49,718 nt of DNA. Source: Candidatus Nomurabacteria bacterium. GTDB lineage: Bacteria > Patescibacteriota > Minisyncoccia > Phycocordibacterales > UBA9973. The notes beneath the pieces were generated by a model. It made no database searches and was not told where the DNA came from. It saw nothing but the letters and a program-made list of their open reading frames with translations. Positions 1 through 49,718 of the stretch are shown here, piece after piece; the first letter of the stretch is position 1, and every line of letters begins with the position of its first letter. The position numbers were made by a program, and so were the translations under genes. The stretch lies in NCBI GenBank assembly GCA_026395955.1, contig JAPLXR010000005.1, forward strand, positions 1-49,718, written 5' to 3'.

Positions 1-1160
1 CATTCGCGAACTTTCATTAAATCCCAAATATTAGTTTTCCCCACATTTACAATTACTCTGCGCACAGCAGAAAGTGTAATAGTTTCTGTATCAGAGAAGA
101 ACATATGGTAGCGAACTAATTTTTCTACTTTCTCTGAAATATCTTTTGGGAATTTTAATCTCTCCATTATTTTTTTTACCATTCGCGCACCGACAACTTC
201 GTGCCCGTAGAAAGTATACTTCCCTTTTCCTCCAGCTTTTGTTCCGTCCCATCTGCGAGTGCGAGGTTTCCCTATATCATGAAAGAGTGCAGAGAGCCTT
301 ATATCTAAAGGTTCATTTTTATCTGCAGCATGACCGAGTGCATGGAGGATATGATCGAAGACATCATATATATGTTCACCTTTTTGTTCACAATGTATTC
401 CCTCTTCGAGTTCAGGAATAATATGTTGTAACAATTTTAATTTTGAAAGCATGCCGATACCTGTCATCGGATATTTAGACATAATTATTTTTGAAAATTC
501 ATCACGAATTCTTTCAAAAGAAATATTTTTTATTAAGTCAGAGTTTTCCACAATTGCAGAAATTGTCTCGTGAGAAATTACGAAATCCAATTCTGTGGAA
601 AACCTCACAGCGCGAATTAATCGCAAAGCATCCTCATTGAATCTTTCTTTTGTATCCCCTACTGTACGGATTGTTTTATTTTGTATGTCCTTTATACCTT
701 CATACAGGTCTACTAATTGTCCTTTAGAATTTAGCGCTAATGCGTTTATAGTGAAGTCACGTCTCTTTAAGTCATCTTCGATCCTTTGACTGAATTTAAC
801 CTCGTCTGGGTGTCTTTTATCGCTATATAGGCCCTCTATTCTATAGGGTGTGACCTCAATTATGTCATATTTAGGTGTTTCACGATTAACATCATCCTCT
901 AAAGTTTCATGTGTAACAGGAATGCATACTCCTACTGTCCCGAACTTGTTCTCATAGATAGTTTTCTCGAACAAAGGCATTATCTGTTCTGGTGTAGCAT
1001 TTGTCGTGATATCCCAGTCTTTCGGTTCCCTGCCGATGATCATGTCTCTGACACATCCGCCGACTAGGTACGCTTCAAAACCTCCTTTCTCTAAATTAGT
1101 TAAAATATTTAAAACCTTTTCAGGTACTTTCTCTATTAAGTTCTTTGTAAGTGTTTCCAC
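1..1160 (-). CDS. cca: CCA tRNA nucleotidyltransferase with HD domain (3' end runs off the window)
   Basis: Manual translation from GTG at 1160 gives AYLVGGCVRDMIIGREPKDWDITTNA, later DLKRRDFTINALA, RFNEDALRLIRAVRF and LFHDIGKP. Absent from the ORF track because it is truncated. Confidence 0.92.
   Translation of the reverse strand, partial: METLTKNLIEKVPEKVLNILTNLEKGGFEAYLVGGCVRDMIIGREPKDWDITTNATPEQIMPLFEKTIYENKFGTVGVCIPVTHETLEDDVNRETPKYDIIEVTPYRIEGLYSDKRHPDEVKFSQRIEDDLKRRDFTINALALNSKGQLVDLYEGIKDIQNKTIRTVGDTKERFNEDALRLIRAVRFSTELDFVISHETISAIVENSDLIKNISFERIRDEFSKIIMSKYPMTGIGMLSKLKLLQHIIPELEEGIHCEQKGEHIYDVFDHILHALGHAADKNEPLDIRLSALFHDIGKPRTRRWDGTKAGGKGKYTFYGHEVVGARMVKKIMERLKFPKDISEKVEKLVRYHMFFSDTETITLSAVRRVIVNVGKTNIWDLMKVRE
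876..918. promoter_or_regulatory. two degenerate parS-like sites inside cca
   Basis: TGTTTCACGATTAACA (876-891) and AGTTTCATGTGTAACA (903-918), each with 3 mismatches to TGTTTCACGTGAAACA. Confidence 0.6.
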
Positions 1161-2361: not shown

Positions 2362-2970
2362 ATGAGAAAAAATATAATTATTACTGGATTACCACATTGT
2401 GGTAAATCTACTTTGCTTAAAAAAATTATTTCAGACATTGAAAAAGGAAAGTCCAAACAATCTTCTTTCGGTTTAGTTACAACTGAAATTTTAGAAAAAC
2501 CTCATAGGAGAATTGGTTTTAAAATGGGCTTCATAGAGAATGAACGTAATTCTCGTGCAACTGAAATTATTACACTGAAAGAATGGAAAAACAAACCTGG
2601 TTTGAAAAATATTGGGAGTTATGGAGTAAACTTAAATATTATTGCAGAAATTTGTCAGGCTGTTCATTTGAATTATGAACATTTAGATTTTATACCCAAA
2701 ATTTTATATTTGGATGAAATTGGTCCAATGCAAGTCGATGTTCCCGAATTCCAAAATTTAACTGAAGAATTTTTAGATTCTGAAAAAGTAACCCTGATGA
2801 CAATGGCGAGTTGCTACTATCACAATAGTGAACAACATCCTTTTGTTACAAAATTAAAAAAACGTGAGGATGTTAGGATTATCGAACTATATGATCATAA
2901 CAGGGAAGAAACAGAGGAAGGAATTTTAGAGTTAATTGATAGAATTCAAAAAGAGAAAATAAAAAAATAA
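2362..2970 (+). CDS. NTPase_1/THEP1-like nucleoside triphosphatase
   Basis: Walker A IIITGLPHCGKST, RIGF, and Walker B LYLDEIGPMQ. Confidence 0.75.
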   Translation: MRKNIIITGLPHCGKSTLLKKIISDIEKGKSKQSSFGLVTTEILEKPHRRIGFKMGFIENERNSRATEIITLKEWKNKPGLKNIGSYGVNLNIIAEICQAVHLNYEHLDFIPKILYLDEIGPMQVDVPEFQNLTEEFLDSEKVTLMTMASCYYHNSEQHPFVTKLKKREDVRIIELYDHNREETEEGILELIDRIQKEKIKK

Positions 2971-2974
2971 CACC

Positions 2975-3000
2975 AAAAACGCGTCTATTAACGCGTTTTT
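2975..3000 (+). terminator. intrinsic terminator
   Basis: AAAAACGCGT-ctatta-ACGCGTTTTT hairpin with a T tract. Confidence 0.75.
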
Positions 3001-3052
3001 TATTTTTTGATTAAATTGGTAAATAGGGAATTTATATAGTAATATATTTATT

Positions 3053-3451
3053 ATGAGTTCAGAAAGTAAAAAACATGGTCCAGTGCATCATTTAGGTCAT
3101 TCTTTGAATGAAAATACAGGTAGATTTAATGATGATATTGTTCGGTCAGATAAAGGTGAGAGTACAAATCCAGATGAAATAAAAAAGAAATGGAAAGGTG
3201 AGATTAATGCAAAGTTGAGAACTTTAGAAGAGACACAGGAAAATATGTTGGTTAAATACCAAGTAGTAAAATCTCTTTTAAATAAATTTGCATTAGGAAC
3301 TTTAGATAAAGGTCTTTTAGCTGAAATAGGTCTCTTTATGAAAGAGTTTGATGGGATAGATAAAGATTCTTTAGATTTTGAACCAAGTATGGAGGATTTG
3401 ATAGATGAGATTGAAATCTTTTCTGAAAGATATCTAGAAAAATTTATGTAA
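3053..3451 (+). CDS. hypothetical protein
   Basis: 132-aa ORF with normal composition and no recognised motif. Confidence 0.6.
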   Translation: MSSESKKHGPVHHLGHSLNENTGRFNDDIVRSDKGESTNPDEIKKKWKGEINAKLRTLEETQENMLVKYQVVKSLLNKFALGTLDKGLLAEIGLFMKEFDGIDKDSLDFEPSMEDLIDEIEIFSERYLEKFM

Positions 3452-37216: not shown

Positions 37217-38971
37217 ATGACTAGCTCAGAATTACTCGATAAATTACTCGAAAAAAGAGGTTTACACACAAAAGAAGACAAAGAAAGTTTTTTAAATCCT
37301 AATTATGAGCGGGATATTTTAGACCCTTTTTTGATGCGTGATATGCAGAAATCCTGTGAACGTATTTTATCTGCGATACAAAACAATGAGAAGATTTTGA
37401 TATATGCCGACTACGACTGTGACGGTATACCAGGAGCAGTTATTTTAAATGATTTGTTTGAAAAGTTAGAATACAAAAATTTTGATGTGTATATTCCTCA
37501 GAGAAATTCTGAAGGGTATGGTTTAAATACTGAATCAGTTGAGAGAATGAAAGAAGACGGAGTGAAAGTTTTAATAACTATCGACCTCGGTATCACAGCT
37601 ATAGAAGAAGTTGCTGATGCACAAAAGCACGGTATCGATGTGATCGTGACGGATCACCATTTACCTCATGCAGAAATTCCAAAAGCTTTTGCAATTTTAA
37701 ATCCAAAGTGCGATGACTATCCAGAAAAAATGCTTTGTGGTGCTGGAGTGGCTTTCAAATTAGCGCAAGGATTTTTAAAATATTTGAAAGGATCAGGGCT
37801 TTCCTTTTCTTCGCCTGCGGAACTCGCTTCGCTCAAACAGTCCTCGGTGTCAGAAAAGCAAATCCCTACTCCTTTTATTCCAATAGAAATTCAGGCTGGC
37901 TGGGATAAATGGCTTCTCGATATGGCAGGACTCGCAACGCTTTCAGATATGGTTCCACTTCTCGGAGAAAATAGAGCGATAGCGTATTTCGGTATGAAAG
38001 TTTTAAAGAAGTCTCCACGCCCAGGACTGAAAGCACTTTTGCGAAAAACAAAAATTGCGCAAGAATATCTCACTGAAGATGATATCGGTTTTATGATTAC
38101 TCCACGATTAAATGCTGCGTCACGTATGGATGATCCACGCAGAGCTTTTGAATTACTAGCAACGAAAGATACAGCAGAAGGGGAAACACTTGCGAACCAC
38201 CTTTCAAATATAAATGATGAAAGAAAAAATCTTGTGAAAAGTATTATGCGAGATATAAATAAAAAATTTGAGAAAAGAGAACACACAGAAGTCATCGTCA
38301 TCGGTAATCCTACATGGAAAGTCGGCGTGCTCGGACTCATTGCTGGGAAAATTACAGATGAATATAAACGCCCAGCCTTTGTGTGGGGACGAGATGAGAA
38401 TGATGTTATAAAGGGTTCCTGCCGTTCTGATGGCTCGGTATCCGTCGTAGAACTAATGACTGAGACAAAAGAGCATTTCACAGAATTCGGTGGGCATGAG
38501 GGCGCAGGAGGATTTTCTGTTCATAATGATAAGATTCATTTCCTTGAAGAAGCACTTTGTAAATCTTTTATAAAAGTTTTTGAGAGCGGGAAAAGGCAAG
38601 ACCTTAAGGGGGCCCAAGGTCTTGCCTTGAGGAGCGATCTCACTTTAACTCTCGATGACATCAGTATGCAGAATTGGAAAGAAATAGAAAAAATGGCACC
38701 ATTTGGACTCGCGAATCCGAAGCCAATGTTTTTATTTGAAAATATTCCCGTTACGGCTATGAAAAAATTCGGCAAAGCTGAGGAGCATTTGGAATTTATG
38801 TTTACAAATTCTCGCGGACAAAAGATAAAAGCTATTTCTTTTTTCTCTACACCTGAATCTTTTACAAAAACTCCTGCTGTCGGCGAACCAATATCACTCC
38901 TCGCCACTTTCGACCTTTCCCGCTTCGCCGGTCGTGTCGAACTTCGTCTCCGAGTGGAAGATATTATTTAA
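37217..38971 (+). CDS. recJ: ssDNA exonuclease RecJ
   Basis: DYDCDG, EGYGL, VTDHH, LCGAGVAFKL, PRLNAASRM, GSCRS, FGGHEGAGG. Confidence 0.95.
   Translation: MTSSELLDKLLEKRGLHTKEDKESFLNPNYERDILDPFLMRDMQKSCERILSAIQNNEKILIYADYDCDGIPGAVILNDLFEKLEYKNFDVYIPQRNSEGYGLNTESVERMKEDGVKVLITIDLGITAIEEVADAQKHGIDVIVTDHHLPHAEIPKAFAILNPKCDDYPEKMLCGAGVAFKLAQGFLKYLKGSGLSFSSPAELASLKQSSVSEKQIPTPFIPIEIQAGWDKWLLDMAGLATLSDMVPLLGENRAIAYFGMKVLKKSPRPGLKALLRKTKIAQEYLTEDDIGFMITPRLNAASRMDDPRRAFELLATKDTAEGETLANHLSNINDERKNLVKSIMRDINKKFEKREHTEVIVIGNPTWKVGVLGLIAGKITDEYKRPAFVWGRDENDVIKGSCRSDGSVSVVELMTETKEHFTEFGGHEGAGGFSVHNDKIHFLEEALCKSFIKVFESGKRQDLKGAQGLALRSDLTLTLDDISMQNWKEIEKMAPFGLANPKPMFLFENIPVTAMKKFGKAEEHLEFMFTNSRGQKIKAISFFSTPESFTKTPAVGEPISLLATFDLSRFAGRVELRLRVEDII
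37787..37875. repeat. ~88-bp structured palindromic element, copy 1, in-frame in recJ
   Basis: Long terminal stem around the core CTGCGGAACTCGCTTCGCTCAAACAGTCCTCG; core 38/42 identical to copy 2. Confidence 0.8.
38591..38628. repeat. 38-bp palindromic element in-frame in recJ
   Basis: AAGGCAAGACCTT-aagggggccc-AAGGTCTTGCCTT; related to 40678-40715. Confidence 0.75.
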
Positions 38972-38988
38972 GATAAAAATTTGTTATA

Positions 38989-39034
38989 AAAATAAATGTT
39001 AACTACTTCTGCTATCGCTGAGTTATTTAACATT
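38989..39034. repeat. 46-bp palindromic site at the 3' end of the PaaX/Cas2-like gene
   Basis: AAAATAAATGTTAACTACTTCTGCTATCGCTGAGTTATTTAACATT; 40/46 identical to 39527-39572. Confidence 0.85.
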
Positions 39035-39505
39035 ATATGCCTTGGCTAATTTAAAAGTTTTGACGGCATCTTTTAGGTGAATCTTTTTTAAATATTCCAT
39101 AAATTCTTTTGGAAGTGGGGAAGGACCGACCCAGACACTTCGCTGGATCATAACATAACTAAATTTTTTCAAATGCCAGCGGAACCACTCTCTTTCCGCT
39201 TTTTGTGTTTCAGGAATATCAAACATAACAATTAGATTTTTAGGTGTGTCTTTTGAAAAATGATTCTCAAATTGACTCAATGATTCCGCTTTCTTTTTCA
39301 TATAATTTTTCCCTGTAAGAGTAATATGCCAGCCTTTGTCGGTATTTTCAATCAGACCCTTTGTTTTCATATAAGAAAGCGTCGAACGCATGTTTCCATA
39401 GGATTCATTTTTGAATTTTGGTAAACCAAAAATATTTACTTTTGTTCCTTTATAGGAAAGGGAAGTATTTTCCAGGGTTTCTAAAATTTTTTCTATTAGT
39501 TTCAT
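39023..39505 (-). CDS. PaaX-like wHTH plus Cas2-like domain protein
   Basis: wHTH segment RSTLSYMKTKGLIE...WHITLTG; Cas2/PaaX-like LIVMFDIPE, REWFRWHLKKFSYVMIQRSVWVGPSP. Confidence 0.8.
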   Translation of the reverse strand: MKLIEKILETLENTSLSYKGTKVNIFGLPKFKNESYGNMRSTLSYMKTKGLIENTDKGWHITLTGKNYMKKKAESLSQFENHFSKDTPKNLIVMFDIPETQKAEREWFRWHLKKFSYVMIQRSVWVGPSPLPKEFMEYLKKIHLKDAVKTFKLAKAYNVK

Positions 39506-39526: not shown

Positions 39527-39572
39527 AAAATAAATGTTAAGTCTTTTTGCTATAGCAGAGTTATTTAACATT
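39527..39572. repeat. 46-bp palindromic site upstream of the PaaX/Cas2-like gene
   Basis: AAAATAAATGTTAAGTCTTTTTGCTATAGCAGAGTTATTTAACATT; dyad centred on GCTA|TAGC with AATGTTAA/TTAACATT outer arms. Confidence 0.85.
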
Positions 39573-39648
39573 TTATATTTTGATATGGTATGTTTGACTT
39601 TAAATACAAAATATTTTACAGTTAAATAAATTGTAAAATATATGTATC

Positions 39649-45952: not shown

Positions 45953-46423
45953 ATGCGAAGAAAAGTAACAAATAGAAATATAGTAGAACCAGATTTTCTT
46001 TACAACTCTACAAAGTTGGAAAAGTTTATCAACTACATCATGTGGGATGGTAAAAAAGAAACAGCACGTAAAGTGATGTATGCTGCTTTTGATATAGTCA
46101 AAGAAAAAACTGGTAATCCAAATCCTCTAGAAGTTTTTGATCTTGCTATGAAAAATGCAGGACCACTTACAGAAGTTCGCTCAAAGCGTATCGGAGGTGC
46201 AAACTATCAAGTTCCTCGTGAAGTTTCTCCTGCACGTCGCCTAGCTCTCGCTATGAGATGGATTCGTGATGCTGCTCGTAATAAGAAAGGCCAACCAATG
46301 GCTACAAAGCTCGCAGATGAAATAATCGCAGCTTCAAAAAACGAAGGTTCAGCTATCAAGAAAAGAGAAGATACTCACAAGATGGCAGAATCAAACAAAG
46401 CTTTTGCTCACTTCGCTTGGTAA
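45953..46423 (+). CDS. rpsG: 30S ribosomal protein S7
   Basis: MWDGKK, EVRSKRIGGANYQVP, HKMAESNKAFAHF. Confidence 0.98.
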   Translation: MRRKVTNRNIVEPDFLYNSTKLEKFINYIMWDGKKETARKVMYAAFDIVKEKTGNPNPLEVFDLAMKNAGPLTEVRSKRIGGANYQVPREVSPARRLALAMRWIRDAARNKKGQPMATKLADEIIAASKNEGSAIKKREDTHKMAESNKAFAHFAW

Positions 46424-46433
46424 TACAAATTCT

Positions 46434-46456
46434 AAAGTCCCCGAAAGGGGATTTTT
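46434..46456 (+). terminator. terminator after rpsG
   Basis: GTCCCC-gaaa-GGGGAT followed by a T tract. Confidence 0.75.
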
Positions 46457-46472
46457 GTTATATATAATATAT

Positions 46473-46634
46473 TTGACTTTTATTTTACTATATGTTAATC
46501 TTATTTTGAAACACTTAGTGTATAAAATATTTTTAAAAAAGAAAGAATAACTAGAAATCACGCCATGGTTTTTAGAACCCCTGAAGTACAAGACTTCGCT
46601 ACTTTATCGTCTTGTATGGAGGGGGATTTTTTTT
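46473..46634 (+). ncRNA. candidate small RNA / ORF-less cassette
   Basis: TTGACT (46473), 17 bp, TAATCT promoter; ends in hairpin CCCCT..TACAAGAC...GTCTTGTA..AGGGG plus T8; no credible ORF. Confidence 0.35.
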
Positions 46635-46688
46635 GACAATTTAATATATATTTTGTAACTTTAAGTAAATAAACAAATTGTTCTAAAA

Positions 46689-47180
46689 ATGAAAAAATTA
46701 GTTATTATACAGTCTAGTAATCTCGATAAAAAAAGATCTGCTAGATTAGAAAGAGAGCCAGAAGTTTATAGTATAAAAAATATTCAGAATTTAAAAAAAG
46801 AATTAAAAAGACCTTATTTTGAATTGAATAATATAAATCTATACTATGGAGATTTTTTAGGAAATAGAATTGTAGCAAATGTTATTTCCCATGATTGGAA
46901 TATTAAAAAGATTCCAGATATTAGATTAAAATACTTTAATGAATATGTTGATTTTAAAGTAGAGAAGGTAATCAATTTCATTGAAGAAATTAAGAATAAT
47001 TCAGATACTGTCATGTTGGTACTAGATTCTAGTCATGCAACAGAAACAGTTGAAGCTTGTTCTATTAAATTTTTGAATAAAAAATTTAATAGAAAACAAT
47101 TTCAATTAAAAAATGAACAAGCTATAATCTTTGATTTAGAAAAAAATACGTTCAAACATATTGTTCCAAATAATCAATAA
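46689..47180 (+). CDS. degenerate histidine-phosphatase (SixA-like) fold protein
   Basis: MKKLVIIQSS where RHG is expected; DTVMLV; LKNEQAIIFDLE C-terminus. Promoter TTGACA (46633), 17 bp, TAACTT; terminator at 47238-47275. Confidence 0.5.
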   Translation: MKKLVIIQSSNLDKKRSARLEREPEVYSIKNIQNLKKELKRPYFELNNINLYYGDFLGNRIVANVISHDWNIKKIPDIRLKYFNEYVDFKVEKVINFIEEIKNNSDTVMLVLDSSHATETVEACSIKFLNKKFNRKQFQLKNEQAIIFDLEKNTFKHIVPNNQ

Positions 47181-47342
47181 TACTTTTATTGGCTTAGTTG
47201 GGTGTCATGGCCCGTTGTTTAGTTTGTGATTAAGCCGAAATCCCTCATCAGAGTATTCTGTTTGAGGGATTTTTTATTTGACTTATATAGCTATATTTTG
47301 TATTGTTTAGGTAAATATAAACAGTTCTAAAAAATAAATAGA

Positions 47343-47702
47343 ATGAAAAAATACTCAACAACACCGCTAATTATCTTAAAACTTGAGAAAGATAATAAAG
47401 ATAATCCAACTGGTATGCAATTACGTATATGGTCATTAGATAATGGCACTACTATAGTAGTCCGTTTATTAGAACACGATGAAAGTGCAACTCAAGCCTT
47501 GTGGAATAAAAAAACCAATGGAGAAGTTAACGATTTTATCCTTGGTTTTCTTAAAAAACAAAAGATTATTAAGAAAATCTCAAACTGGCACTATGATAAT
47601 GATATTTATGAAATAGTTCAAGAGCAAGATGAGTTTGAAGAAGCAGATGAATGTGTATATTTCTGCTGGAAAGTAAAATCAGAATTGATTAGTAAGTTTT
47701 AA
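47343..47702 (+). CDS. hypothetical protein (accessory cassette A)
   Basis: 119-aa ORF with promoter at 47278-47306 and terminator at 47710-47737. Confidence 0.6.
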   Translation: MKKYSTTPLIILKLEKDNKDNPTGMQLRIWSLDNGTTIVVRLLEHDESATQALWNKKTNGEVNDFILGFLKKQKIIKKISNWHYDNDIYEIVQEQDEFEEADECVYFCWKVKSELISKF

Positions 47703-47786
47703 ATTATAAAAGCCTCATAGAAATAAGAGGCTTTTTTATTTGCAAAATTGAGGTACTTTTATTTATTGTTTAACATAATTATCCAC

Positions 47787-47806
47787 ATCTACGCTATAGC
47801 GTAGAT
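47787..47806. repeat. 20-bp perfect palindrome upstream of the Cas2-like gene
   Basis: ATCTACGCTATAGCGTAGAT, abutting TTATCCACA at 47779-47787. Confidence 0.9.
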
Positions 47807-47829
47807 TATAAATATAATATAATTAATAT

Positions 47830-48204
47830 ATGGTTCTAAATAATAAAAAGAAATACAAAGGGGTTTCTGTAAACATCTTTGGATTACCAAATTTAGATAA
47901 TTCTAAAAAAGAAAATACTGAAAGTAAAAAAATTCCAAAAAGAATTTATCTCGATTCTTTTACTGCTGATTTTAAAGAGAATGCACCAAAGAATTTAATT
48001 CTTATGTATGATATTCCAGATAATATGAAAAAGCATCGGGATTGGTTTCGTCGTCAATTAAAAAGTTTTGGTTTTATAATGGTTCAAAAGAGTGTATGGG
48101 TCGGCCCATCACCATTACCAAAAGACTTTTTAGAATATTTGAAAGAAATTAAAATAGGGGACAAGTTTAAAACTTTTAAATTAGCTAAAGCTTATAAATT
48201 CTAA
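47830..48204 (+). CDS. PaaX/Cas2-like domain protein lacking the wHTH
   Basis: Paralog of 39023-39505: YKGVSVNIFGLP, PKNLILMYDIPD, RDWFRRQLKSFGFIMVQKSVWVGPSPLPKDFLEYLK, KTFKLAKAY. Confidence 0.8.
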   Translation: MVLNNKKKYKGVSVNIFGLPNLDNSKKENTESKKIPKRIYLDSFTADFKENAPKNLILMYDIPDNMKKHRDWFRRQLKSFGFIMVQKSVWVGPSPLPKDFLEYLKEIKIGDKFKTFKLAKAYKF

Positions 48205-48226
48205 TTAATTATTACTAATATCTTCA

Positions 48227-48246
48227 ATCTACGCTATAGCGTAGAT
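48227..48246. repeat. 20-bp perfect palindrome downstream of the Cas2-like gene
   Basis: ATCTACGCTATAGCGTAGAT, identical to 47787-47806. Confidence 0.9.
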
Positions 48247-48327
48247 GAAATTTTGCTGTTTGACTTATCTCAGTATATTTTGTATTGTTTGGATAAATAT
48301 AAACAGTTCTAAAAAATTATCTTAAAA

Positions 48328-48522
48328 ATGAAAAGTGATAGTAGTAAGGTATCAAATACCTATATTGAAGAAAAACCGCTTGATGGAGATAGTGCCTTTT
48401 GGCAAAGATACGAAGAAGTAAATGAAAACTGCAAAAATCGGTCAAAAGAAAAAGCAAAAAAAGAAATTGAAAAAGTTCAAAGGAGACATGAGTTGGACTA
48501 TCGTATGGAAGAAGAATTTTAA
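48328..48522 (+). CDS. small hypothetical protein (accessory cassette B)
   Basis: 64-aa ORF with promoter at 48260-48288 and terminator at 48530-48556. Confidence 0.55.
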   Translation: MKSDSSKVSNTYIEEKPLDGDSAFWQRYEEVNENCKNRSKEKAKKEIEKVQRRHELDYRMEEEF

Positions 48523-48648
48523 ACGTTTTAAGCCTCGTAGAAATACAGGGCTTTTTATTTGCAAAATTGAAAGAAATGTTTTATATTAAAGGTATATAGG
48601 GCTTAGGCCTTTTTATTTTATTAATAAGTAATTATAAACAAATATTAT

Positions 48649-49718
48649 ATGGAAAGAGATTATCCACTAGAGAAAGTTAGAAATATTGGAATTATTGCCC
48701 ACATCGATGCGGGTAAGACAACTACAACAGAACGTGTGCTTTATTACACAGGTGTTTCACATAAAATCGGTGAAGTTCATGATGGAGAAACAACTACAGA
48801 CTGGATGGAACAAGAACGTGAAAGAGGTATCACTATTACTTCTGCTGCTGTTACTTGTTTCTGGACACCGACATATGCACTTACAGACAAGAGCAAGAAG
48901 CATCGTTTCAATATTATCGATACTCCTGGGCACATTGACTTCACAGTGGAAGTAAAAAGATCTCTCCGTGTACTCGACGGTGCTGTCGTCGTATTTGATG
49001 GTGTGGCTGGGGTAGAACCTCAATCAGAAACAAACTGGCGTTATGCTGACGAGGCGAAAGTTCCTCGTATTTGTTTCGTGAACAAGCTCGACCGTACAGG
49101 TGCTAGTTTTGAACACTCATTTGCAACTATCCTCGATCGTTTGAATAAAAATGCTGTTCGTTATCAAATCCCTATCGGCCTCGAAGAAAAGCATGAAGGT
49201 GTTATCGATCTTTTGAAAATGAAAGCTTATTACTTTGAAGGTGAAATGGGTAATAAGGTTATCGAAAAAGATATTCCTGAAGACATGAAAGCAGACGCAC
49301 AAAAGTATCATGCAGAATTGATTGAAAAAATCGTTGAAACAGATGATGTTATGATGACAGAATATTTGGATGGAAAAATACCAAGTATCGAAGTTTTGAA
49401 AAAAACTCTTCGTAAGGCTGTTATCAACAATGATATTTTCCCAGTTTTCGCTGGATCAGCATTGAAAAACAAAGGTGTACAGCTCGTACTCGACGCCGTT
49501 ATTGATTATTTACCAGCTCCTACAGACATCCCTCCTATTGGCGGAATCAATCCTGATACAGAAGAACCAATGGTTCGTCATGCTTCTGATGCAGAGCCTT
49601 TTTCTGCTTTGGCTTTCAAAATCGCTACTGACCCATTCGTAGGACAAATCATTTTCTTCCGTGTATATTCTGGAACTCTTTCAGCTGGAAGTTATGTTTA
49701 CAATCCTCGTACAAGAAA
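48649..49718 (+). CDS. fusA: elongation factor G (runs off the window end)
   Basis: Manual translation: [67 protein letters not shown]. Own promoter TTGCAA, 17 bp, TATATT. Confidence 0.97.

Follow-up and report, generated by a model that had tools for sequence, protein, structure and literature searches.

The window, that is, the whole stretch of 49,718 nucleotides that was analysed, belongs to a genome of Candidatus Nomurabacteria (designated G000; 699,333 bases, 33% G+C, 94.9% complete). At 47.8 kb it carries a gene for a protein of 124 amino acids, neighboured by rpsG, orphan ORFs and fusA, and at 39 kb a longer paralog of 160 amino acids. The features of the two loci are as follows, with the basis of each assignment in brackets.

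38994..39035, no strand: downstream site of the 39-kb paralog, centre GCTATCGC, overlapping the stop codon (sequence)
39023..39505, minus strand: 160-aa full-length paralog with a winged helix and a Cas2-like domain (Pfam, alignment, AlphaFold)
39532..39573, no strand: upstream site of the 39-kb paralog, arms AAATGTTAA and TTAACATTT round GCTATAGC (sequence)
47779..47787, plus strand: TTATCCACA, a DnaA-box-like 9-mer with a 1-base overlap with the upstream palindrome (sequence; judged incidental)
47787..47806, no strand: upstream 20-bp perfect palindrome ATCTACGCTATAGCGTAGAT, a putative operator (sequence; mismatch searches)
47813..47823, plus strand: two overlapping TATAAT hexamers, 47813-47818 and 47818-47823 (sequence)
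47830..48204, plus strand: ORF of the 124-aa HTH-less protein with a Cas2 fold, best read as a mini-PaaX (Pfam, paralog alignment, AlphaFold, Foldseek)
48227..48246, no strand: downstream copy of the 20-bp palindrome ATCTACGCTATAGCGTAGAT, a candidate second operator, roadblock or hairpin (sequence)
48260..48288, plus strand: TTGACT-17-TATTGT promoter-like site of the next orphan ORF, 48328-48522 (promoter scan)

The two identical palindromes that an earlier note on this DNA had placed around the ORF at 47830-48204 were confirmed, and their positions, the gaps (23 bases from the upstream palindrome to the ATG and 22 bases from the stop codon to the downstream palindrome) and the 22-bp inverted repeats were re-derived from the sequence; extended by one base at either end, the sites give two 22-mers, of which one is the reverse complement of the other. 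Only two exact copies of ATCTACGCTATAGCGTAGAT are present in the source genome. With up to 3 mismatches allowed, 2 matches were obtained in the window against 0.01 expected, and the next best match genome-wide has 4 mismatches (C6:2159-2178). The core GCTATAGC occurs three times in the window (39549, 47793 and 48233) against 0.37 expected, a count reached in 1 of 100 shuffles. The 39-kb paralog is flanked by a 50-nt repeat, 86% identical between its two copies (38989-39038 and 39527-39576), and its downstream site lies between convergent genes, with recJ ending at 38971. The statement that the core matches the sites of this paralog holds for the upstream copy, which carries GCTATAGC, but not for the downstream copy, which reads GCTATCGC.

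The centre of the upstream palindrome is located 33.5 bp 5' of the ATG, the usual location of a -35 element, and no -35-like hexamer was found at the position of the palindrome by inspection of the sequence or by the promoter scan. The second TATAAT hexamer ends 6 nt 5' of the ATG, a position which implies that the predicted mRNA of the 47.8-kb gene is leaderless or near-leaderless. On the other side of the gene, the promoter TTGACT-17-TATTGT of the orphan ORF begins 13 bp 3' of the downstream palindrome, and further copies of this promoter-leader are found at 47278-47322 and, on contig C7, 3' of the paralog's downstream palindrome.

A perfect DnaA box had also been described as abutting the upstream site. 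The 9-mer TTATCCACA is indeed present, with an overlap of 1 base, but its significance did not hold up: 15 perfect boxes were counted in the source genome against 8.9 expected from composition, scattered and with no cluster here. The ATCCACA part of TTATCCACA corresponds to an extension, ATCC[CA]CA, which adjoins many upstream sites of related short genes in other genomes. A DnaA/oriC reading was rejected, and the box was judged incidental.

The 124-aa protein was matched by Pfam PaaX_M (PF20803; 3.6e-14, 53 bits against a cut-off of 24) and by Pfam CRISPR_Cas2 (PF09827; 3.4e-07, 30.8 bits against a cut-off of 23.8), by PADLOC Cas2 models (down to 3e-08) and by a PDB profile of Cas2 (5xvn, E 0.016). 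The AlphaFold model (pLDDT 67) consists of an N-terminal beta hairpin followed by a beta-alpha-beta-beta-alpha-beta fold, for which the best Foldseek matches were type II-A Cas2, VapD and PaaX, with weak E-values (3e-03 and above). A Cas2 fold is supported by Pfam, the profile match to 5xvn and Foldseek. For the 160-aa paralog (AlphaFold pLDDT 84.4; PaaX_M 3.6e-13), the best Foldseek matches were the PaaX-like Rv0674 (3kfw), Cas2 and PaaX (8a39); only generic HTH families were matched in Pfam, all below their cut-offs, and the winged helix is present in the AlphaFold model. Both proteins end 6-10 residues past the last strand of the Cas2-like domain, and no Pfam match to PaaX_C, the C-terminal helical effector-binding domain, was found in either of them.

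Five PaaX_M genes are present in the source genome, and four of them (the 47.8-kb gene, 39023-39505 and those on contigs C4 and C7) form one subfamily sharing the motifs Y-x-G..V-N-[IL]-[FL]-G-[LI]-P and V-W-V-G-P-S-P-L-P. Alignment with the three paralogs of 160-166 aa bore out that the 124-aa protein keeps Y-K-G..V-N-I-F-G-L-P and the whole Cas2-like domain, and some 12 residues at the N terminus and a block of roughly 26 are absent from it. As judged from the AlphaFold model of the 160-aa paralog, the missing parts are helix 1 (residues 3-13) and the recognition helix with the wing (residues 36-61), and the kept motif is the turn and the second helix of the winged helix.

The short form had been regarded as a paralog which has lost its winged helix, and as a local event this was not upheld. 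By protein search with the short form, 1740 relatives were obtained, and the best 120 of the 1740 are nearly all 117-142 residues long and 59-90% identical; they are named 'CRISPR-associated endonuclease Cas2', 'DNA-binding transcriptional regulator PaaX' or hypothetical protein. The clade is old and comprises more than 120 clusters with identities of 59-90%, and its genes often have a syntenic place between rpsG and fusA. Mean column identity of the short-form alignment is 63%, with Y9, G11 and Y60-D61 invariant and with a basic helix alpha-1 (invariant K67, K68, R70, R74 and R75). Short-form genes are found between rpsG and fusA in the source genome and at four loci (L022, L046, L049 and L060), and many others are found elsewhere; locus L055 starts with rpsG, and at L067 a long form occupies the rpsG-fusA gap. 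As judged from these sequences, the short form is a large, old and conserved clade of Paceibacteria, not a product of recent decay. 'CRISPR-associated endonuclease Cas2', the name given to it in databases, is most probably misapplied, and the best reading of the 124-aa protein is a member of an undescribed 'mini-PaaX' family of Paceibacteria (CPR). No paper linking PaaX with Cas2 or describing a mini-PaaX family was found in the openly accessible literature. As for the company of the short form, it is joined by long forms in 4 of the 5 sampled genomes where it occurs, and the fifth (G033, 97% complete) has a short form and no long-form member of the subfamily.

For the estimation of flanking sites, loci from 61 genomes of the taxonomic family and 24 loci from further genome contigs were used, and genes with more than 80 bits which were not at a contig edge were counted as bracketed when an element with a score of at least 12 was shared by both flanks. 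Such an element was found for 42 of 51 family genes and for 19 of 176 control genes from the same loci; the genomes are relatives and not independent, and these counts describe the sample. When a wrong start codon or diverged arms were allowed, 7 of the 9 misses also had sites on both sides, which leaves L043 without a clear site and L047 with an upstream site only and a plain terminator downstream. Among more distant PaaX-like genes (less than 80 bits), a matched flank pair was found in only 2 of 16. In the source genome, each of the four subfamily genes is closely preceded by one long palindrome, with a second at the stop codon or shortly past it, and each has its own outer arms round a similar centre. 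Bracketing by matched palindromes is a rule of this family.

That gene and site pair evolve as a unit was borne out by the paralog- and ortholog-specific sites flanking these 42 of 51 genes and by G019, a genome of another genus. There, 68 of 120 residues of the protein are identical, the 20-mer is identical at 20 of 20 positions on both flanks, and the intergenic DNA around it has no visible similarity to that of the source genome. Because the protein has diverged to this extent and its surroundings are unrelated, the unchanged site indicates purifying selection. The 20-mer is also identical in L049. Paired sites are identical even at asymmetric positions in some loci (8 of 8 in direct orientation in L024, 8 of 8 in inverted orientation in L041), and overall 48 of 82 asymmetric positions match between paired sites against 27.9 ± 3.2 in shuffled pairs; the orientation of the two flanking copies is mixed, being direct in some loci and inverted in others. 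Because the pairs match even at asymmetric positions, copying between the two flanking sites probably occurs, and the sequences point to site-to-site copying and not only to selection for binding. The related claim that each gene's two sites resemble each other most failed for the C4 paralog, the upstream site of which matches a solo copy (33 of 36) better than its own downstream site.

Short-form and long-form sites were compared as two profiles. In the 30 short-form rows, sequence is conserved to ±10 and 90-100% symmetric there, and symmetry is 70-83% to ±15 (the downstream rows of G000 and L049 show upstream context as the strings are identical, which affects only the positions beyond ±10); the half-site is A-T-[C/A]-T-A-C-G-C-[C/T]-A, i.e. 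ATCTACGC[C/T]A. In the 41 long-form rows, which include three plain hairpins that are not sites, sequence is conserved only at GC at ±3/4 (a GC-N4-GC centre), and symmetry is 88-100% in the arms at ±12..18, which are different in each paralog and lie about 24 bp apart within a site of about 36-42 bp. A strict tripartite model of arms, free spacer and centre for the long forms was only partly borne out, as positions ±5..11 are still 73-93% symmetric. The recognition-helix sequences vary along with the long-form arms, which is not an independent test since both are inherited together, and among 19 gene-site pairs no residues covarying with the variable site positions were evident in the short proteins. 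The simplest reading is a modular site, in which the winged helices would read the arms and the module common to both forms would read the centre. Because short-form sites keep only that centre, we infer that the shared part reads it; the proposal of recognition by the Cas2-like domain is supported to this extent, with the N-terminal motif included in the shared part.

The register of the site with the promoter is also shared. Of the 38 upstream regions in which a site was clear, 30 contain a -10-like hexamer, matched at 5 or more of its 6 positions, the end of which lies 4-9 nt 5' of the ATG (6-9 nt in 29 of them), which implies leaderless or near-leaderless mRNAs in the family as predicted from sequence. 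The distance from the site centre to the -10 hexamer is mostly 21.5-23.5 bp in short forms and mostly 32.5-35.5 bp in long forms, and the spacing at the 47.8-kb gene matches that of the other short-form genes. With the site centre at the -35 position, occupancy should control the gene's own promoter, and the sign may be repression or activation.

The position of the downstream copy ranges from 12 bp within the gene to a few tens of bp past it; in one subgroup, the tail S-I-S-A-[I/M]-A at the C terminus of the protein and the stop codon are part of this copy. Because the next downstream gene is convergent in 21 of 51 cases (co-directional in 30), the downstream copy is not in general an operator of a downstream promoter. 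As RNA, the downstream palindrome of the 47.8-kb gene would form an 8-bp hairpin (-12.4 kcal/mol) followed by GAAATTTTGCTG, with no adjacent U tract, and neither palindrome was flagged as an intrinsic terminator in a scan of 46400-48700. Across the sites, mismatched pairs on the sense strand were G:T and A:C in ratios of 17:15 upstream and 5:15 downstream (other kinds, 28 and 27, respectively), and an RNA-structure role is disfavoured because there is no G:U-compatible excess among the mismatches. We favour a second protein-binding site, which may act by looping or as a roadblock.

Solo palindromes, the search for which had been proposed, were found, e.g. within truB in G000, within uvrC in two genera and at 7 positions in G033. 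The solo copies of G000 comprise one of short-form type, ATATACGCCATGGCGTATAT, in frame inside truB, and four of long-form types (three C4-like and one C1b-like); two copies of the C4-type upstream site lie in intergenic gaps of 43-48 bp, and the third lies inside a reverse-transcriptase ORF beside the C1b-like site. The 12-bp centre ACGCYATRGCGT was found in 11 of the 61 family genomes (8 of the 14 with a subfamily gene and 3 of the 47 without one), and its reversed control gave at most 1 match in any genome. The richest of the 61 genomes is G033, with 11 matches to ACGCYATRGCGT, namely 2 round the short gene, 2 round a C9-type gene and 7 solo; many of these solo copies are perfect palindromes of 40-44 bp with copy-specific outer arms, often between convergent genes. 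The in-frame copies in uvrC of the two other genera are at the same loop and add 2 and 16 residues relative to G000. Two further core matches, one in a conserved Clp-type motif and one in another ORF, were rejected as chance since the outer bases are absent. Within the order, a 14-mer of the palindrome was found in 24 of 301 genomes, at most 10 times per genome; the same-genus genomes G000, G256, G324 and G030 have 3, 6, 1 and 0 copies of this 14-mer, respectively. Overall, copy numbers are 1-11 per genome.

Two known systems provide the closest comparison for the protein. PaaX is the phenylacetyl-CoA-responsive repressor of E. coli and Pseudomonas (PDB 8a39, 3l09 and 3kfw), and Cas2 is the spacer-integration subunit of CRISPR systems, encoded with cas1 next to the CRISPR array. 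The Cas2-like middle domain (PaaX_M), the N-terminal winged helix of the long paralogs and the fold matches to 3kfw and 8a39 are shared with PaaX. In the review PMC9493321, PaaX is described as having a wHTH, a dimerisation motif and the operator TGATTC(N27)GAATCA, and as repressing its own promoter there by steric hindrance of RNA polymerase; the two-arm layout of the long-form sites, with arms about 24 bp apart over the -35 region, is reminiscent of that operator with its N27. Unlike PaaX, the present proteins end after the Cas2-like domain with no C-terminal effector domain, their sites have an added conserved GC-N4-GC centre and a second copy at the 3' end of the gene, the 124-aa protein is without a winged helix and its site has shrunk to the contiguous central 20 bp, and no phenylacetate genes are near the 47.8-kb gene. 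With Cas2 and VapD, the fold, a weak but consistent sequence similarity and the conserved Asp after strand 1 (Y60-D61) are shared. In contrast to Cas2, there are own palindromes, an N-terminal motif which in the paralogs is part of the winged helix, and no Cas1: Cas1 (PF01867) gave no match in the 94.9%-complete source genome, whereas 7 of 14 control genomes were matched, and a CRISPR remnant was rejected because the genome has no Cas1. To our knowledge, neither the bracketing layout in bacterial regulators nor in-frame copies of such sites inside essential genes have been described.

From the anatomy, the conservation and the promoter geometry observed here, we infer that the short protein itself binds the palindromes, and that it is a self-contained autoregulator in which a Cas2-fold dimer would read the centre of the site; the chances of this reading appear to be about even. 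The mini-PaaX would then be a sequence-specific DNA-binding protein whose own gene has a site for it on either side. A dimer of a full-length paralog would read the whole long-form site with its two winged helices on the arms and its Cas2-like dimerisation module over the GC-N4-GC centre. The HTH-less clade would keep the central module only, i.e. the Cas2 fold and the invariant Y-K-G..V-N-x-F-G-L-P stretch, and short-form recognition would have grown to the 20-bp palindrome. Protein at the upstream copy would cover the -35 position in the leaderless-type promoter of its own gene, with self-regulation as the result, and the downstream copy may offer a second binding site which cooperates by looping or blocks transcription into or out of the gene. 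The bracketed gene would thus be an insulated unit, here placed inside an accessory cassette array between rpsG and fusA. Autonomy of the short form is supported by G033, where no long-form subfamily member accompanies it, and by the source genome, which has no Cas1. The earlier note had suggested a non-autonomous element served in trans by the paralog; the short-form sites are without long-form arms and G033 has the short form only, both of which argue against it. In G033, a wHTH-bearing PaaX-like gene of C9 type has flanking sites that share the 12-bp centre, and a trans reading is possible there. In-frame solo copies, and copies between convergent gene ends, are unusual for operators and weigh against an autoregulator.

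The layout of a gene between two cognate palindromes, with an own palindrome class for each paralog, is reminiscent of REP/RAYT modules, in which, according to PMC2817692, genes for IS200/IS605-type Y1 (HUH) transposases are bracketed by their cognate REPs and REPs usually number more than 100 copies per genome; the extra copies elsewhere are likewise shared. Low-copy dispersed palindromes might accordingly be recognised or mobilised by the Cas2-fold protein, possibly as a nuclease through the Asp of Y-D-I-P. This reading stays alive because solo copies occur and because copying between sites is indicated, and it draws on the scattered copies (1 + 4 in G000, 7 of 11 in G033), on those in frame in uvrC of two genera, truB and the reverse-transcriptase ORF, on the three genomes with core copies but no subfamily gene, and on the compact junctions of G030, from which both units are missing. 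We nevertheless hold it to be unlikely: the protein has an unrelated fold and is not an HUH/Y1 transposase (PaaX_M and Cas2 are its only Pfam matches), the copies number 1-11 instead of hundreds (for the 14-mer, 24 of 301 genomes with no more than 10 copies each), the flanking copies are direct or inverted, the genes keep their recJ-rnhA-comEC and rpsG-fusA neighbourhoods in different genera, as expected after long residence by vertical inheritance, and the fixed register of the site with the -10 box is that expected of an operator. A further-reaching version, in which the HTH-less Cas2-fold domain alone reads the bases of double-stranded DNA as a new recognition module that descends from the CRISPR spacer-integration subunit or gave rise to it, and forms together with its palindromes a self-propagating unit, copied even in frame into housekeeping genes and with one copy kept at each gene end, is considered improbable.

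The binding activity may also reside elsewhere. If the short protein binds no DNA and another wHTH-bearing PaaX-like protein reads the sites, the short form could be a partner or decoy in mixed dimers formed through the Cas2-like domain, which corresponds to the middle region of PaaX, described as a dimerisation motif in PMC9493321. The long forms present in 4 of 5 sampled short-form genomes, and the C9-type gene of G033 flanked by sites with the short-form centre, would fit such a role. The 20-mer is shared by no site of any other paralog in G000, the short-form sites have no arms at winged-helix distance, and across genera the short protein and its 20-mer are jointly conserved, irrespective of which long forms accompany them; a partner or decoy is quite unlikely on these grounds. 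It is highly unlikely that the palindromes act as RNA, namely as hairpins at mRNA ends for stability or termination which are perhaps bound or cut by a Cas2/VapD-like ribonuclease, even though the 8-bp hairpin of the 20-mer (-10.4 to -12.4 kcal/mol) is as stable as the canonical terminator hairpins of neighbouring cassettes, the 47.8-kb gene has no other terminator, and VapD and several Cas2 proteins, endoribonucleases by PDB title, are among the fold matches. Besides the sense-strand mismatches, among which G:U-compatible pairs are not enriched, and the stem with no U tract directly 3' of it, the -10 box lies 3' of the upstream copy and so places this copy outside the gene's own transcript, and non-complementary positions separate the centre from the arms in the long-form sites.

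Genes of this kind labelled 'Cas2' or 'PaaX' are present in hundreds of CPR genomes, and by the present analysis they belong neither to CRISPR systems nor to the regulators of phenylacetate genes; their products appear to form a family of compact site-specific proteins, each tied to its own palindrome. The contribution of the window is that HTH-bearing and HTH-less paralogs stand side by side in one genome, which suggests modular reading of the site. If the short form binds the 20-mer, a Cas2 fold would read DNA sequence directly, which would bear on the relationship between Cas2 and PaaX, and a protein of about 120 aa with a site of 20 bp would be at hand as a minimal pair that is easy to test. 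The bracketing or the in-frame copies could represent a new kind of gene insulation or selfish DNA in genomes almost without spare space.

A search for empty alleles had been proposed. In G030, a genome of the same genus, 13 bases separate rpsG from fusA and about 50 bases separate recJ from rnhA; no palindrome is present, and both units of G000 are absent from these junctions. In metagenome contigs from four DNA runs, relatives with rpsG joined directly to fusA were found, together with a strain which skips or replaces the two cargo ORFs located 5' of the Cas2-like gene. Neither a joint at the palindromes nor a sign of excision or inversion was seen in these contigs, which drop rare variants. 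A defence-system reading of the neighbouring orphan ORFs was rejected, as they gave no match in Pfam or PADLOC. The rpsG-fusA gap is a hotspot, with sizes from 0.3 to 3.1 kb in four other genomes, and the two largest gaps (G017 and G038) contain arrays of orphan ORFs in which every ORF has a separate promoter and hairpin terminator. Conservation in the close relative L049 extends to the promoter-leader and terminator blocks, but the intervening ORFs are unrelated.

In truB of the genome from which the window derives (G000, contig C6), two palindromes lie in frame within the coding sequence, one of the type that brackets the short-form genes (encoding the HTH-less PaaX_M/Cas2-like proteins):
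C6:2159-2178, short-form-type palindrome, ATATACGCCATGGCGTATAT
C6:2487-2517, palindrome of 32 bp with the centre CTGCTAGCAG
At the 32-bp palindrome, TruB of G000 carries four additional residues compared with the single ortholog aligned to it. The 20-bp palindrome was also located in frame in uvrC of two genera, at the same loop in both (locus L073 of G033 and locus L083 of G010), where it encodes the residues Q-S-T-P-W-R-R; a subfamily gene was not found in the 90%-complete assembly of G010.

In G000, palindromes of the type belonging to the long-form (winged-helix-bearing) paralogs were likewise detected away from their genes. A reverse-transcriptase-like ORF (C2:33613-34746) contains two adjoining in-frame copies at C2:34202-34306, one C4-like and the other C1b-like, and two solo copies of the upstream site of the paralog on contig C4 occupy housekeeping intergenic gaps of 43-48 bp:
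C9:82799-82834, 33/36 match to the C4 upstream site
C3:18532-18567, 30/36 match to the C4 upstream site
The C4 upstream site is closer to both of these copies than to the downstream site of its own gene.

In one short-form subgroup (L052, L055, L060 and other loci), the downstream palindrome overlaps the 3' end of the gene and codes for a conserved tail, S-I-S-A-[I/M]-A, together with the stop codon. Two short-form genes (1211-1586 and 2688-3078) share the L055 contig, separated by about 1.1 kb that holds an unrelated 160-aa ORF, and their palindrome variants differ (ATCTACGCTA... for one and ATATACGCCA... for the other, both sequences partial).

The rpsG-fusA gap is filled by a small-cassette array (window 46424-48648; L049:1505-4133; L095 and L097), in which every cassette carries an orphan ORF between a promoter-leader and a hairpin terminator, with TTATTTGCAAAAT after the terminator. 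Between the window and L049, a close relative, the regulatory blocks are kept and the ORFs are unrelated. No such cassette was found in this gap of G030, of the same genus, and six were counted in that of G038.

Additional perfect or near-perfect long palindromes of G000 have no link to any PaaX_M gene:
C2:57825-57867, long palindrome
C3:101486-101518, long palindrome
C7:138363-138393, long palindrome
C9:69704-69736, long palindrome
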